This document shows positions 805 through 6,150 of a DNA stretch of 6,150 nt, piece after piece; position 1 is the first letter of the stretch, and each line of letters begins with the position of its first letter. Below the pieces are notes generated by a model that saw only the letters and a list, made by a program, of their open reading frames with translations, ran no database searches and had not been told where the DNA came from. The translations under genes and the position numbers were made by a program. Where the stretch lies: the IMG/VR virus record IMGVR_UViG_2778261637_000011, one strand, 5' to 3'. The stretch is from a virus (Duplodnaviria > Heunggongvirae > Uroviricota > Caudoviricetes).

Positions 805-815
805 GTGGAGTGGAT

Positions 816-3143
816 ATGGCAGCAGTAAAAATCTCAGGTGTGCTGAAAGATTGTGCGGGAAAACCAATACAGAACTGCACTATTCAACTGAAGGCAAAGC
901 GTAACAGCACCACGGTACTGGTGAACACGGTGGCCTCTGAAAATCCGGATGAAGCCGGGCGTTACAGCATGGATGTTGAGCATGGCCAGTACAGCGTCAT
1001 CCTGCTGGTTGAAGGTTTTCCGCCTTCACATGCCGGGACCATTACCGTCTATGAAGGCTCCAGACCAGGTACGCTGAATGATTTTCTCGGTGCCATGACG
1101 GAAGATGATGTCATGCCGGAGGCATTGCGTCGTTTTGAGGCAATGGTGGAAGAAGTGGCACGCAACGCCGAAGCCGCCTCTCAGAGCGCAGCGGCGGCAA
1201 AGAAATCCGAAACTGCAGCGGCATCATCGAAGAACGCGGCGAAAACCTCAGAAACGAATGCAGCTAATAGTGCACAGGCGGCAGCGACCTCAAAGACTGC
1301 ATCGGCAAACTCCGCGACAGCAGCCAAAAAATCAGAAACCAACGCGAAAAATAGCGAGACAGCCGCAAAGACGAGCGAAACCAACGCAAAGTCCAGCCAG
1401 ACGGCAGCGAAAACCAGCGAAACGAATGCCAAAGCCAGTGAAACTGCGGCAAAAAACAGCCAGGTTGCAGCAGCCCAAAGCGAGAGCGCGGCAGCCGGTT
1501 CTGCGACTTCAGCAGCTGGATCAGCAACTGCTGCGGCTAACAGCCAGAAAGCTGCGAAGACGAGTGAAACTAACGCAAAGTCCAGCCAGACGGCAGCGAA
1601 GACCAGCGAAACGAATGCCAAAGCCAGTGAAACTGCGGCGAAAAGCAGTCAGGATGCAGCGGCCCAAAGCGAGAGTGCCGCAGCCAGTTCTGCAAGCGCG
1701 GCGGCTGCTTCTGCCACTGCATCAGCTAACAGTCAAAAAGCAGCAAAAACCAGTGAAACCAACGCAAAGGTGAGCGAAACAGCGGCTGCGAACTCAGCGA
1801 AAGCATCGGCAGCAAGCCAGGCTGCGGAGCCGTATAAATATGTCTTACAGCCGCTGCCTGATGTGTGGATACCATTTAACGATTCGCTGGATATGATTAC
1901 GGGCTTTTCGCCATCATATAAAAAAATTGTTATTGGTGACGATGAAATAACGATGCCTGGCGACAAGATTGTTAAGTTTAAACGTGCATCGAAAGCAACC
2001 TATATTAACAAATCTGGTGTGCTGACAGAGGCTGCCATTGACGAGCCACGATTTGAACGTGATGGCCTGCTTATTGAGGGGCAAAGAACAAACTACATGC
2101 TCAATTCGGAAAGCCCTGCCAGTTGGGGGCGATCGTCAAATATGGATGTGCCCGAAACAGGGACGGATAATTTTGGTTTTACCTATGGAAAGTTTGTCTG
2201 CAACGATTCTCTGATTGGGCAAACCTCAGCCATTAATATGGCATCAATTGCTGCAACAAAGTCAGTTGATGTCTCAGGCGATAATAAACACGTGACAACC
2301 TCATGTCGTTTTAAAACAGAACTGCAGGTAAGGTTGCGTATCCGGTTTGATAAATATGACGGTAGCGCAACAACTTTTCTTGGTGATGCGTATATTGATA
2401 CACAAACGCTTGAAATTAATATGACAGGCGGTGCTGCCTCAAGGATTACAGCGAGAGTCAGAAAGGACGAAGCTACCGGATGGATTTTTGCAGAGGCAAC
2501 AATTCAGGCAATTGATGGGGAGTTAAAAATAGGCTCTCAGATACAGTATTCTCCTAAGCAGAGCGGGGCAACCGTATCTGGTGACTATATTTATCTGGCC
2601 ACCCCACAAGTAGAAGATGGGCCTTGTGTATCATCTTTTATTATATCAGGAGCGACGGCGGCGACCCGCGCAAGCGATATAGTTACAGTTCCAATTAAGA
2701 ATAATCTTTATAATCTTCCTTTTACGGTTCTTTGTGAGGTACATAAGAACTGGTATAAAACGCCAAATGCAGCGCCACGTGTTTTTGATACCGGCGGTCA
2801 TCAAACCGGAGCGGCTATTATTCTTGGCTTCGGTCGTTCAACAGATTACGACGGATTTCCTTATTGCGATATTGGAGGAGCTAACAGACGGGTAAACGAA
2901 AACGCATCGCTTGAAAAAATGGTTATGGGGATGCGTGTAAAGTCAGAGCAGTCTACGTGCTCAGTAAGTAACGGGCATATATCCAGCGAAACAAAAACCA
3001 CATGGTCCTGTATTCAGAACACCGCAATTATCCGTATTGGAGGCCAGACTACAGCCGGGTTACGTCATTTATTTGGTCATGTCAGGAATTTCAGAATATG
3101 GCACAAGGCATTGACTGATGCTCAGGTGGGGGAGTCAATCTAA
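816..3143 (+). CDS. stf: Side tail fiber protein, mosaic: lambda Stf-like N-terminus, repetitive shaft, divergent C-terminal putative receptor-binding domain
   Basis: RBS ggag (807-810) lies 5 nt before ATG 816; the ORF track begins at an in-frame GTG at 810. The N-terminal ~110 aa (MAAVKISGVLKD...GQYSVIL...GFPPSHAGTITVYE...GTLNDFL...AMVEEVARNA) closely resemble lambda Stf from memory. Residues ~120-340 are AAKTSETNAK-type tail fiber repeats. The C-terminal ~430 aa are lower in GC and end in ...FGHVRNFRIWHKALTDAQVGESI, which resembles the terminal motif of LamG/ConA-like jelly-roll domains. Confidence 0.88.
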   Translation: MAAVKISGVLKDCAGKPIQNCTIQLKAKRNSTTVLVNTVASENPDEAGRYSMDVEHGQYSVILLVEGFPPSHAGTITVYEGSRPGTLNDFLGAMTEDDVMPEALRRFEAMVEEVARNAEAASQSAAAAKKSETAAASSKNAAKTSETNAANSAQAAATSKTASANSATAAKKSETNAKNSETAAKTSETNAKSSQTAAKTSETNAKASETAAKNSQVAAAQSESAAAGSATSAAGSATAAANSQKAAKTSETNAKSSQTAAKTSETNAKASETAAKSSQDAAAQSESAAASSASAAAASATASANSQKAAKTSETNAKVSETAAANSAKASAASQAAEPYKYVLQPLPDVWIPFNDSLDMITGFSPSYKKIVIGDDEITMPGDKIVKFKRASKATYINKSGVLTEAAIDEPRFERDGLLIEGQRTNYMLNSESPASWGRSSNMDVPETGTDNFGFTYGKFVCNDSLIGQTSAINMASIAATKSVDVSGDNKHVTTSCRFKTELQVRLRIRFDKYDGSATTFLGDAYIDTQTLEINMTGGAASRITARVRKDEATGWIFAEATIQAIDGELKIGSQIQYSPKQSGATVSGDYIYLATPQVEDGPCVSSFIISGATAATRASDIVTVPIKNNLYNLPFTVLCEVHKNWYKTPNAAPRVFDTGGHQTGAAIILGFGRSTDYDGFPYCDIGGANRRVNENASLEKMVMGMRVKSEQSTCSVSNGHISSETKTTWSCIQNTAIIRIGGQTTAGLRHLFGHVRNFRIWHKALTDAQVGESI
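1190..1800 (+). repeat. In-frame repetitive region inside stf, including a 189-bp tandem duplication (copy 1 1362-1550, copy 2 1551-1739, partial third copy from 1740)
   Basis: Seen directly: the string gtccagccagacggcagcga recurs at 1391 and 1580, a 189-bp period, with near-identical flanks. A nested periodicity of about 42 bp encodes TAAKTSETNAKxSx units. Confidence 0.8.
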
Positions 3144-3424
3144 TGAAAGATTTAACACTCAAATTTGCCGACAGGGCCGACTTTTCGGCCTTTATGGAGA
3201 GTATTGGCTATTATGATGACGAGTCGATGCAGGATGATATTCTTATTGACGTGATAGGTAACGTGTACAAAGAAACCGGAGAACTGACTGAAGATGGCGA
3301 ACCGGTATGTGTTAAGGAAGACGGATATTTTGTAAACGTGCGCATCATTAATGATTCGCAAATATCGTCATTATTCGATGAATACGTGGTTGCTGTTGAG
3401 CATCAACTTCGTGGCTGGATGTGA
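3143..3424 (+). CDS. Hypothetical small acidic protein (93 aa) translationally coupled to stf; possible fiber assembly factor or adaptor
   Basis: ATG at 3143-3145 overlaps the stf stop TAA (3141-3143) by 1 nt (TAATG). A G-rich Shine-Dalgarno-like stretch ggggag (3129-3134) lies upstream. The protein is D/E-rich with no obvious transmembrane segment. I do not recognise the family. Confidence 0.6.
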   Translation: MKDLTLKFADRADFSAFMESIGYYDDESMQDDILIDVIGNVYKETGELTEDGEPVCVKEDGYFVNVRIINDSQISSLFDEYVVAVEHQLRGWM

Positions 3425-3433
3425 GGAAGAAAA

Positions 3434-4474
3434 ATGGCTACATCGACAGTAATTCCTGATGACATCAAAACGCTAAAATCCGACGTTAGCAAATTAAAAA
3501 ACGATCAAGGAAGCTACGCAACAAAATTATATGTAGACAGCAAAGATGAAATCGTTGGTGACTGGTCTGCTTCATGGTATCAGCAGGTATTGCCAACTAG
3601 CGGAGCTATATTTGGGAGAAAACTCCGCTCAACTCACAGGACGGCAGGTGTTGAGGATGCGTATTGCGAACTATACCTCAAAAAATGGATAGACAGTCCA
3701 GGTAACGCAATGGCGCGCCTTAACCTGAACGATAACGGGACAAACATTTGCTGGGACTTTACCAACCTTTATGGCGGTACGATGATTTTTCCCGGTGACA
3801 GCGGATACCTCAAAATGGGTAACTGCCTTATGTCATACAGCAAGCGTGGAAGTAACGCGCTTATTAAATTTGATTACACCGACACATTACAGATCAAATA
3901 TGCCAATCATGGGTCAACCATGACATTAAACACACAGGGAACCGCTTATGCTGGTGTTACTGCTCAATTGTGGGGCAACTCCAGCCGTCCTGTTGTTTAT
4001 GAAGTCGGTGTTGATGGTGGCGCTTATATGTTCTATGCGCAGAAAAATACCGATAACACCTATATGTTAAGCGTTAATGGTGCATGTCATGCCACCGCAT
4101 TTAACCAGCATTCCGACCGGGATCTGAAAGACAACATTCAGGTGATCGATAATGCAACCGACCGCATCCGTAAAATGAACGGCTATACATACACGCTTAA
4201 AGAAAACGGTATGCCCTATGCTGGTGTCATTGCACAGGAAGCTCTGGAAGCAATCCCAGAAGCTGTAGGTTCCGCAATGAAATATCAGGACGGTGCAAGC
4301 GGATCGGAAGGTGAAGAAGGTGAACGTTATTACACAGTAGATTATTCTGGTGTTACTGGCTTGCTTGTTCAGGTAGCCAGAGAGTCAGACGACAGAATAA
4401 CAGCACTGGAAGAAGAAAATGCAGAATTAAAACAAAGATTATCTGCAATTGAGGCGACGCTTGCGTCTAAATAA
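3434..4474 (+). CDS. Tail fiber / tailspike-like protein with C-terminal peptidase S74 intramolecular chaperone domain
   Basis: RBS gagga (3423-3427) overlaps the upstream stop, 6 nt before ATG 3434. The C-terminal ~120 aa carry the hallmark S74 motifs: S227-DRDLKDNI, GVIAQEALEAIPEAV, YYTVDYSGVTGLLVQVARE and a terminal coiled-coil ITALEEENAELKQRLSAIE, as in endosialidase and T5 L-shaped fiber chaperone domains. Confidence 0.85.
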   Translation: MATSTVIPDDIKTLKSDVSKLKNDQGSYATKLYVDSKDEIVGDWSASWYQQVLPTSGAIFGRKLRSTHRTAGVEDAYCELYLKKWIDSPGNAMARLNLNDNGTNICWDFTNLYGGTMIFPGDSGYLKMGNCLMSYSKRGSNALIKFDYTDTLQIKYANHGSTMTLNTQGTAYAGVTAQLWGNSSRPVVYEVGVDGGAYMFYAQKNTDNTYMLSVNGACHATAFNQHSDRDLKDNIQVIDNATDRIRKMNGYTYTLKENGMPYAGVIAQEALEAIPEAVGSAMKYQDGASGSEGEEGERYYTVDYSGVTGLLVQVARESDDRITALEEENAELKQRLSAIEATLASK

Positions 4475-4480
4475 TATTAA

Positions 4481-4500
4481 GGGGCCGAGCGCCCCGTTTT
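4481..4500 (+). terminator. Rho-independent terminator candidate after the fiber module
   Basis: Seen directly: GC-only 5-bp stem ggggc (4481-4485) pairing with gcccc (4491-4495), loop cgagc, then tttt (4497-4500). It starts 7 nt after the stop codon at 4472-4474. Confidence 0.5.
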
Positions 4501-4516
4501 ATTGGGTAGGATGAAA

Positions 4517-4810
4517 ATGGATATAACACCTTTCCTTCATGCACTTTGTGCTGTGGCTGCGCAGGTACTGGTTGGTCTTTTTACCGGAAACTGGGCTTAC
4601 GGGGCGATAGCCGGTTGTACGTTCTTCATTGCTCGTGAACATACCCAGGCAGAATATCGCTGGATTGAAATGTTCGGGCATGGCAAGCGTATGAATATGC
4701 CGTGGTGGGGTGGTTTTGATCCGCGCGTGTGGGATGTGGCAAGCCTGATGGATTTTTCTGTGCCGGTGGTGGCTTGTCTGCTGGTCTGGCTGTTGGTTAA
4801 TCGTGGGTGA
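4517..4810 (+). CDS. Hypothetical small membrane protein (about 98-102 aa), candidate prophage accessory gene
   Basis: ORF is open from 4502 (TTG) to TGA at 4808-4810. The most plausible start is ATG 4517, with agga (4508-4511) 5 nt upstream; ATG 4511 is an alternative. Two hydrophobic stretches (LHALCAVAAQVLVGLFTGNWAYGAIAGCTFFIA and VPVVACLLVWLLV) suggest two transmembrane helices. The overlapping antisense ORF (4499-4984) has a His/Arg/Pro-rich composition that does not look protein-like. Confidence 0.5.
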   Translation: MDITPFLHALCAVAAQVLVGLFTGNWAYGAIAGCTFFIAREHTQAEYRWIEMFGHGKRMNMPWWGGFDPRVWDVASLMDFSVPVVACLLVWLLVNRG

Positions 4811-5273
4811 AAAAGGGAGTTGTAAACGCAACACAGGAAGAGGTGCCGCTTCAGGTTGCTGGGAATAAGCGCCGGGGTCTGTTAAATCATGCCAATACGC
4901 TAATCGAGCCAGATATTGAGTAGCCTGCAGTCCGTCATGGCGTAATCGTTTTGTGATATGCTGCACGCCGTATGCAAGGAGCATGATTGCGCTCGGCTGG
5001 CGAGCGCTCGATAGTGCTACTATTGAATGATTGCTAGTCTAGGCGGATTGTACTTAAGTAATATGACGGTTCAAGGCGTTTAATCTGAAACCAGCCACAT
5101 ATTAGCCTTTTCAAACATTTCCTGAACACTCAGGCTTACCTGCTCTTTCTCGTGCTTGCTGGCATTTGTGTTGAGCGCCGGTGAATACTCTTACTCAACA
5201 CTCCCAGAATTATATCTGTTGCATCAGGCAGACCATCAAAATTCTTTTGTCATAAACGAGTTCCACGAATAAT

Positions 5274-5355: not shown

Positions 5356-6150
5356 TTATAGTAAAGATGATATGCCAGCAAGAAATGGAGTAAATACTGT
5401 AATGTGTGCAGATACATTATTAATAAAGTCCTTATATGCTTCTTTAAAACAGCCGCTTTGGTGACTGGCTGCCAGTGCCTGTACATTATCTATAAGGTGT
5501 GATTCTGTCGCGCCATCAAAGTTTTTCGATTTTATTGCCTCAATCATTTCATTAAATATTGTGGGCTCATTATAATTTGTCGTAGTAGTTGCCGTAGCAC
5601 CTGAAGAATGTATATTGATACTAGAACCGGAAATTCCACTGACATGAATATTAGCTTCTTGTTTCATAAGAGGTAAACCATTCTCCATCTTGTATAGGTC
5701 ACTATCTTGTAGCATCTGCAATGTGATACGTACTGCTGCTAATAGTTGTTCTTGCTTTTTGAATAAGGAACACATCTGTTCTACAGACCAAAGCTGAACT
5801 GCATTTTCTTCGCATGTTTTTTTAGCTATATTTGGCACTTCCGAATCATAATTACCATAAACCCAAGTGTCCTTGAATCTTTCGATAATAGCTGTCAACG
5901 TTGGAAATTTACTGAAATCACTATTAATGGATAGTAACTCATCAGACATATAAAGTGCCATATCTCTGCCTTCCGCATATACTGCTTCCACTTTATTCCG
6001 TGTTGCAAATGGTATTCTTGAAATAAAACGAAAATCCTCTTCATTTTTTAAATGGACCCAGTCTTTATCAAAACGGCTAAATTCGTACCCTATCGATAAC
6101 AGTCTACTTATATATTGGGCTACTGATTCCAAATCTTTTCTTATGTCCAA
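5356..6150 (-). CDS. Hypothetical protein, AT-rich cargo gene, 5'-truncated by the window edge (C-terminal 264 aa visible)
   Basis: A 795-nt open frame on the minus strand with stop TAA at 5356-5358 (tta on +). The M at 6150 in the ORF track is a TTG at the window edge, so the true start is beyond 6150. Sampled 60-nt lines give about 32-42% G+C versus about 63% in lom. I recognise no confident family from the visible residues. Confidence 0.6.
   Translation of the reverse strand: MDIRKDLESVAQYISRLLSIGYEFSRFDKDWVHLKNEEDFRFISRIPFATRNKVEAVYAEGRDMALYMSDELLSINSDFSKFPTLTAIIERFKDTWVYGNYDSEVPNIAKKTCEENAVQLWSVEQMCSLFKKQEQLLAAVRITLQMLQDSDLYKMENGLPLMKQEANIHVSGISGSSINIHSSGATATTTTNYNEPTIFNEMIEAIKSKNFDGATESHLIDNVQALAASHQSGCFKEAYKDFINNVSAHITVFTPFLAGISSLL

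Follow-up and report, generated by a model that had tools for sequence, protein, structure and literature searches.

A short S74-domain fibre protein encoded behind the side tail fibre of a phage-21-like Escherichia coli prophage: a candidate accessory receptor-binding protein

Lateral tail fibres determine which O-antigen or capsule types a siphovirus gets past. One of the closest described relatives of the protein considered here is pb1 of phage T5 (1396 aa; PDB 4UW7/4UW8), which carries a tail anchor and ends in an S74 chaperone (residues 1263/4-1396). The S1264A substitution abolishes autoproteolysis in pb1, Ser1264 being the scissile and catalytic residue that is activated by Lys1269, and competition for the receptor is seen with the cleaved protein only (PMC4690869). 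A second relevant system is that of the T5-like phage DT57C, whose branched fibres are built from LtfA and LtfB and to which the gp14/gp15 pair of phiEco32 is comparable (PMC4728585, PMC10713586). LtfB (of DT57C and DT571/2) and gp15 are proposed to attach to the main fibre via their N-terminus, are dispensable on rough hosts, and add a second specificity. A protein with features of both systems is encoded in IMGVR_UViG_2778261637_000011, a viral DNA stretch of 6,150 nucleotides (the window, a term used here for the whole stretch) that represents the right-hand end of the late operon of a phage-21-like lambdoid Escherichia coli prophage. The protein is a 346-aa precursor, referred to as the mini-fibre, and its gene (3434-4474, + strand) follows those of the side tail fibre Stf and of a 93-aa protein.

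The mini-fibre is interpreted, with a probability of approximately 0.6, as a trimeric accessory receptor-binding protein of the side-tail-fibre apparatus that is anchored on Stf. Its family is already catalogued in databases as a tail fibre protein, and an S74-matured accessory fibre subunit is as such a known kind of component. The only elements that are modestly new are the three-gene cassette found across phage lineages and the distinctive N-terminal anchor. No description of this cassette was found in the literature, including the BASEL, DT57C, O-antigen review, LL5, and Hf4s papers, a coverage that is incomplete.

Like LtfB and gp15, the mini-fibre is the product of a separate S74-bearing fibre gene located just past the main lateral fibre gene, and in T5-like relatives its cassette occupies the same place as LtfB, i.e., after ltfC. 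However, there are several differences between the two systems. LtfB has 788 aa compared with 346 aa for the mini-fibre, and the ~45-aa adaptor of LtfB/gp15 (MSRPLMPKSG...VVVNRDAAV...) has no counterpart in the latter. The carriers differ as well. LtfA, in which residues 223-471 are the gp14-like docking region, has its own S74 domain, whereas the C-terminal half of Stf resembles LamG domains and the head spike of a gene transfer agent (GTA) and is followed by an extra gene for a protein of ~92 aa. On the basis of the dissimilar N-terminus and the different type of carrier, the mini-fibre is not filed under the LtfB/gp15 family.

The S74 domain and the mature chain

The open reading frame (ORF) of the mini-fibre begins with ATG and terminates with a stop codon at 4472-4474. 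A Shine-Dalgarno-like GAGGAA (3425-3430, + strand) lies 3 nt (AAA) ahead of the ATG, and the ribosome-binding site is strong. The protein matches phrog_4563 ("tail fiber protein", 346 positions) from end to end (346/346; expect value, E, of 3.5e-220) and belongs to a 98%-identical cluster with 2132 members. At loci with 100% DNA identity, the Prokaryotic Genome Annotation Pipeline (PGAP) labels it "tail fiber domain-containing protein" (WP_001523194.1).

A preliminary description, made from the DNA letters, had assigned an S74 chaperone domain to the C-terminus and had placed self-cleavage between H226 and S227. The domain is borne out by a hidden Markov model search over the C-terminal part, in which Pfam PF13884 (Peptidase_S74) matches residues 227-278 over model positions 1-57 of 58 with 53.7 bits and E 2.6e-14, the curated cut-off being 22 bits. 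Judged by this profile match, the S74 assignment is real and a chance match is excluded. Residues 226, 227, and 232 are H, S, and K, respectively, and QH/SDRDLKDNI of the mini-fibre aligns without gaps (MAFFT) to NT/SDARLKNDV of T5 pb1, such that S227 and K232 correspond to S1264 and K1269. The conserved Ser/Lys motif of the preliminary description is therefore present upon proper alignment, and its cleavage site gains support as a prediction. The catalytic motif, S227-D-R-D-L-K232, is encoded at 4112-4129 (+ strand), with the Ser codon at 4112-4114 and the Lys codon at 4127-4129. Because Ser227 and Lys232 are in register with the proven T5 pb1 site, cleavage of the predicted scissile bond, H226/S227, is expected; this position is the standard one to propose for a member of the S74 family.

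The S74 intramolecular chaperone spans residues 227-346 (4112-4471, + strand), as judged from Pfam, PDB 6f45, and an AlphaFold2 (AF2) model, and is predicted to be released after folding. It is located at the extreme C-terminus, is preceded by a gp34-like knob, and ends in a long helix (residues 304-344) that is modelled with predicted local distance difference test (pLDDT) scores of 87-93. PDB 6f45, the chaperone-bearing tip of S16 gp37, is the one solved structure that is reached by sequence alone (E 8.6e-4 with the single sequence and 7.6e-9 with a profile). The mini-fibre shares with T5 pb1 the C-terminal S74 domain, the S-x-x-x-x-K signature in register, and the terminal coiled-coil helix, and it would likewise be expected to trimerize, cleave, release the chaperone, and unmask its binding tip. 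In contrast to pb1, the 346-aa mini-fibre has no recognizable tail anchor, and it harbours a gp34-like knob where pb1 has its "bullet" tip.

The architecture of the mature part was delineated from a family alignment of the mini-fibre with close (68-87% identity) and distant (38-46% identity) relatives of 307-348 aa, comprising 16 sequences. According to this alignment and the model, the mature 226-residue chain is composed of an invariant 15-residue N-terminus, a three-heptad coil, a hypervariable β-rich body, and a knob. The N-terminus (residues 1-15; 3434-3478, + strand) follows the motif M-[AV]-T-x-T-x-I-P-x-D-I-x-x-L-K, is almost invariant over its whole length, and is the proposed docking element. 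M1, T5, I7, D10, I11, T13, and K15 are identical in 16/16 relatives, down to 38% identity. Residues 9-29 (3458-3520, + strand) are predicted to form a short trimeric coiled-coil stalk of three heptads; AF2 predicts a helix over the same residues, and I11, L14, V18, and L21 are placed at heptad a/d spacing, in agreement with the short N-terminal heptad-like segment of the preliminary description. The length of the coil varies in whole heptads, with several relatives having a 21-residue (three-heptad) insertion. The coiled-coil Pfam matches in homologues are at noise level.

The variable β-rich body (residues 36-160; 3539-3913, + strand) is hypervariable at residues 36-125 and is the candidate receptor-binding region. 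Its β strands are modelled with pLDDT values of ~70-87. The relatives are very divergent mid-protein and converge again from approximately residue 160. The knob (residues 161-226; 3914-4111, + strand), the last residue of which, His226, is the predicted mature C-terminus, is homologous to the repeated domain of gp34, the proximal long tail fibre of T4. Just ahead of Ser227, the family profile matches this domain (5nxh, 4uxe, and 5nxf) with E ~1e-9, Foldseek returns a local match of the knob to 4uxe_A with a probability of 0.97, and weak Gp34_trimer Pfam matches are found in homologues. The pattern WGN..R..V.E.G....FY.Q.... marks the knob region that is homologous to gp34 (PDB 4UXE, 5NXF, 5NXH). 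In gp34, however, the domain is one of the modules inside the shaft and is not followed by an S74 domain. Apart from this local gp34 match, a Foldseek search of the mini-fibre model against the PDB returned none at E<=0.001; LolA-like matches (E ~0.1) were discarded as noise.

Allelic variation was analysed in 44 distinct 346-aa proteins as the mean pairwise identity per region. This value is 0.93 for residues 1-35 (one allele), 0.68 for residues 36-125 (three alleles), 0.83 for the knob at residues 161-226 (four alleles), and 0.92-0.96 for the S74 domain (two alleles). The region alleles occur in mosaic combinations and recombine freely among the 44 proteins. The gene as a whole is under purifying selection, with a ratio of nonsynonymous to synonymous substitution rates (dN/dS) of 0.11-0.32 against four alleles. 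On the level of sequence, this combination of a conserved putative anchor with distal parts that vary and recombine is the pattern seen in receptor-binding proteins.

A full HMMER scan of 1.84 billion cluster representatives yielded 43,544 matches at E<=0.001, of which the best 150 were inspected. Only four full-length clusters among these 150 have the short architecture (326-346 aa), which agrees with the earlier remark that the protein is far shorter than typical fibres. Nearly all other full-length strong matches are fibres of 400-1400 aa that align from approximately residue 42-160 of the mini-fibre onward, and the other short ones look like fragments. Since the strong matches are the C-terminal ends of long fibres, the body of the mini-fibre is considered a genuine fibre tip. 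A single chain ends in this body, knob, and S74 domain in Bas19 ChristophMerian (633 aa), Klebsiella phage KLB26 (859 aa), and P0265 (551 aa), with homology that starts at approximately residue 10-58 of the mini-fibre. Unlike the mini-fibre, these three fibres have a tip that is covalently joined to an anchored shaft: they possess their own tail anchor and lack the LamG domain, the 92-aa gene, and the M-A-T-x-T-x-I-P-x-D-I motif. It is the N-terminal motif that sets the stand-alone form apart, as would be expected if a docking contact replaces the covalent link.

The proposed carrier fibre and the three-gene cassette

The first gene of the cassette, stf (810-3143, + strand), encodes the 777-aa side tail fibre Stf, which begins with an anchor of the lambda type (PF08400) and continues through a repetitive shaft rich in Ala, Ser, Thr, Lys, and Glu into a C-terminal domain. 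This domain (residues 345-777, ~430 aa; 1842-3140, + strand) is LamG-like and is a candidate docking surface. It matches the head-spike fibre Rcc01080 of the Rhodobacter capsulatus GTA (PDB 6tb9, E 1e-7; NF048003, E 3.2e-13), and a weak Laminin_G_3 match is found in one homologue of the block. The ~430-aa block is common to the large fibres of four phage lineages and runs from QPLPDVWIPFNDSLDMITGF to RNFRIWHKALTD, the LamG-like motif with which it closes. The N-termini of these large fibres are of the lambda Stf type in lambdoid and 9g-like phages, of the pb1/LtfA type in T5-like phages (79% identical to DT57C LtfA), and of a third type in T1-like phages. Because the N-terminal anchors are lineage-specific, the LamG domain and the 93-aa protein are the only virion-part candidates common to all mini-fibre hosts. 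The LamG-type fibre is without an S74 domain of its own and without a Tfa-type chaperone gene.

The shaft of Stf is encoded by tandem repeats (1316-1769) with a period of 189 nt, 2.2 copies, and an 84% match, in which 42- and 21-nt units are nested. The repeats encode KTSETNAK/SETAAK-type units, and KTSETNA is invariant in the fibres of all four lineages. In the identical genome of E. coli TUM14771 (L001:6626-9001), PGAP divides stf in two, calling a "prophage tail fiber N-terminal domain" pseudogene and, separately, a "phage head spike fiber domain-containing protein." This split looks like an annotation artefact of the repetitive shaft, the ORF in the window being continuous over 777 codons.

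The start of the 93-aa gene (phrog_1361; 3143-3424, + strand) overlaps the stf stop codon (TAATG). The gene always accompanies the LamG-type fibre, even in the absence of the mini-fibre. Its product has no Pfam, NCBIfam, PADLOC, or PDB match, its database relatives are all "hypothetical," and its AF2 model is unusable (pLDDT 51). The 93-aa protein could be a fibre chaperone or an adaptor. The C-terminal alleles of Stf (100, 78, 56, 48, 44, and 40% identity to the window) assort freely with the mini-fibre alleles, whereas a divergent 89-aa version of the small protein pairs with the 48% Stf allele. That the 89-aa version tracks this fibre allele suggests a link of the small protein with the fibre rather than with the mini-fibre, e.g., as a fibre chaperone. 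Among GTDB species representatives, the gene was found in two Escherichia species and in one probably mis-binned contig of a metagenome-assembled genome (MAG), from which nothing is learned about its distribution beyond enterobacterial phages. The contig in question, assigned to a Collinsella sp. MAG (L151, 2836 bp), carries the gene at 92% identity and is almost certainly a mis-binned Escherichia prophage fragment.

The mini-fibre gene follows 116 of 119 93-aa genes. Conversely, the 93-aa gene and the LamG-type fibre lie directly upstream of 114 of 117 motif-bearing ORFs, the remaining three being cut by a contig edge. Both counts overstate independence because the loci were recruited via these proteins and some are duplicates. 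Free of that recruitment bias are six independent look-ups of distant short homologues (P0042, P0044, P0046, P0084, P0098, and P0108) and the annotated phages. In six of the six look-ups, the mini-fibre gene is located ~10 nt past a 91-92-aa gene, which itself overlaps with the end of a gene for a fibre of 646-784 aa; at contig cuts, the truncated end of such a gene is still visible. The same gene order is found in JenP2 and ESCO3 (Nonagvirus), Bas22 KurtStettler (Seuratvirus), and Salmonella phage HMD-P4 (Tequintavirus), in the last of which the cassette comes after the collar gene ltfC. The lineages that harbour the cassette are T1-like (ERF, primase, and Dam genes), T5-like (pb3, pb4, and LtfC), 9g-like, and lambdoid. 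In none of the loci examined does the mini-fibre gene occur away from the LamG fibre and the 92-aa gene.

The Bas22 homologue (L008:5001-6533) has 510 aa, with the usual terminal coiled-coil helix past the S74 core replaced by a ~210-residue Gly/Gln/Cys-rich extension that ends PTPPTPPTSCC. The extension may stem from a genuine fusion or may be an artefact of sequencing or annotation.

The third slot of the cassette can be occupied by different proteins or be empty. Among 5426 complete E. coli genomes, the 346-aa form (at least 80% covered) is present in 527 and a 234-aa form in 723. The alternative occupant, a protein of 227-234 aa (L024:6292-6996, and also L056, L070, L079, and others), has the first 32 residues in common with the mini-fibre (71% identical overall, motif preserved). 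It has a longer coiled coil, a mature part of ~115 residues, and its own, divergent S74 domain with the motif SSIRYK (Pfam E 4.6e-6). In 1128 of the 5426 genomes, the slot is empty, i.e., a phage-21-type junction is found in which the 92-aa gene is followed by a membrane-protein gene, with 12 nt between the two (phage 21, L003:4576-5160). E. coli Nissle 1917 carries such an empty-slot element. Identity among almost all of the 1128 copies is 99% or higher; they are therefore largely one clonal element, probably a single vertically inherited, sit-linked prophage remnant. The view of the mini-fibre gene as an optional insert relative to phage 21 was revised accordingly: most slots are occupied, and the empty ones represent a single variant that is widespread and for the most part clonal.

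Proposed docking on the side fibre and competing explanations

By homology to known S74 fibres, it is hypothesized that the C-terminal S74 chaperone (residues 227-346) sets three mini-fibre chains in register. After folding of the gp34-like knob, Ser227 and Lys232 would cut H226/S227, and the 120-residue chaperone would leave, exposing the distal end. Comparative genomics suggests that the N-terminus then attaches the trimer, by a non-covalent contact, to the LamG-type end of Stf and/or to the 93-aa protein, since the LamG domain and the small protein are the sole virion-associated candidates that the four lineages have in common. The side fibre would thereby gain a second, exchangeable specificity, most likely for a surface glycan, in the form of a tip extension or a branch. 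For the mini-fibre, the second specificity is deduced from hypervariability only.

That the protein is a compact tip or branch that docks onto another fibre had been proposed in the preliminary description, and this reading is the best-supported one. Although docking itself is a deduction, it is favoured by an N-terminus of 15 residues that is invariant even in relatives of 38-46% identity, by strict synteny behind the LamG fibre and the ~92-aa gene in four siphovirus lineages, by a slot that is interchangeable or empty, and by single-chain fibres that have the same tip without the motif.

Several observations weigh against this reading. The presence of the mini-fibre in the virion and its binding to Stf rest on comparative inference. 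The fibre and the 93-aa gene exist without the mini-fibre in phage 21 and ~1100 E. coli genomes, from which it follows that the mini-fibre is dispensable and that the 93-aa protein must have another role. The preliminary description had called for a comparison of the N-terminal ~45 aa with the adaptor segments of branched receptor-binding proteins, and no similarity to the adaptor of DT57C LtfB or phiEco32 gp15 was detected by BLASTP at permissive settings; if the mini-fibre docks, its interface therefore differs from that of LtfB/gp15. When the first 45 residues were searched on their own against the database, the matches were confined to truncated fragments of this E. coli protein, an uninformative outcome. 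The AF2 monomer of the mini-fibre is mediocre (pLDDT 64.9), and its middle domain is without a significant fold match in Foldseek against the PDB. Lastly, Arg1250 of T5 pb1, which is supplied by a neighbouring chain and completes the oxyanion hole of the active site, has no clear equivalent, in that the alignment shows no obvious Arg at the corresponding spacing upstream of S227; R185 is invariant across the mini-fibre family.

An alternative is that the mini-fibre is a stand-alone short fibre, S74-matured and self-attached to the tail tip or baseplate region instead of Stf. Several independent fibres are common in phages, and the gene is preceded by a strong ribosome-binding site of its own and followed by a terminator-like hairpin. 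Nevertheless, such an attachment is unlikely, given that the same N-terminus is found in lambdoid, T1-like, T5-like, and 9g-like phages, which differ in their tail tips and fibre anchors, and that the gene never stands apart from the LamG fibre and 92-aa pair in the loci examined.

The homologues in Bas22 and HMD-P4 are annotated as "putative lateral tail fiber chaperone" (BASEL, HMD-P4), which raises the alternative of a non-virion protein that acts in trans as an assembly chaperone of the large lateral fibre. The LamG fibre, which has neither an S74 domain nor a Tfa-type chaperone gene, would be a conceivable client. However, known S74 domains work in cis and are then cleaved off (PMC4690869). 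A chaperone should also be present wherever its client is, whereas phage 21 and the ~1100 genomes keep the fibre type without the mini-fibre. Moreover, a fibre-type knob and a hypervariable, recombining body are typical of receptor-binding proteins, and the same body forms the distal tip of ordinary single-chain fibres, all of which makes a trans-acting chaperone quite improbable.

Least probable is a recombination remnant, i.e., the C-terminal part of a longer fibre gene that stayed behind in the prophage and serves no function itself. Residues ~42 onward do match the C-terminal ends of 550-1150-aa fibres and fibre loci are recombination hot spots (PMC4728585), but length and N-terminus are conserved over four lineages that include lytic phages with compact genomes, dN/dS is low at the values given above, the ribosome-binding site is strong, and the gene is intact in 527 complete E. 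coli genomes.

A broader proposal can also be formulated, which is put forward tentatively and at somewhat less than even odds. The N-terminus, the LamG/GTA-spike-like end, and the 92-aa protein may together constitute an undescribed portable docking system, distinct from the LtfA/LtfB-gp14/gp15 joint, that lets at least four siphovirus lineages plug in self-cleaving mini receptor-binding trimers. With mature parts of ~115 to 226 residues, such a system would provide a ready-made minimal scaffold for phage retargeting. Docking would also explain the exchange of host range among lambdoid, T1-like, T5-like, and 9g-like phages via a three-gene cassette and would offer a compact module for retargeting lambda-type particles. 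The mini-fibre family, which is common, may provide one of the smallest receptor-binding modules found in nature, made of a short conserved anchor and exchangeable binding parts. If docking does not hold, the mini-fibre is one more S74 fibre protein.

Prophage setting and neighbouring features

The cassette is preceded by lom (152-751), identified by an Ail_Lom match (E 9e-127), and is followed by a gene for a 97-aa predicted membrane protein (phrog_1443; 4517-4810, + strand). The membrane-protein gene trails the cassette in lambdoid prophages only, and it is doubtful that it is part of the fibre system. The region 3143-4810 is 100% identical to several human E. coli chromosomes, in which the element adjoins sitABCD, as phage 21 likewise does. 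The isolated phages Tritos, PhiR63_1, HannyBb, and 2G7b have the same genes at ~97% identity.

Further downstream, a DinI-like frameshifted pseudogene is located at ~5080-5266 (- strand), on the basis of a PGAP call in an identical genome. The last feature is a 264-aa ORF (5356-6150, - strand) with a guanine-plus-cytosine (GC) content of ~36%, which reaches exactly up to the end of the window. It has no Pfam or PHROG match, and PADLOC gives only a weak match to PDC-M14B (E 0.0017); the ORF resembles a cargo ("moron") gene located at the end of the prophage. A 161-aa ORF at 4499-4984 (- strand), antisense to the membrane-protein gene and with no family match, is probably spurious.

The terminator-like GC hairpin past the mini-fibre gene (4481-4495, + strand) starts 6 nt beyond the stop codon and consists of GGGGCCGAGCGCCCC followed by GTTTTATT; it is a consensus match only. 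Located between the mini-fibre and membrane-protein genes, the hairpin is palindromic and reads on both strands. Further terminator-like GC hairpins are found at 778-799 and 103-122, where they flank lom.

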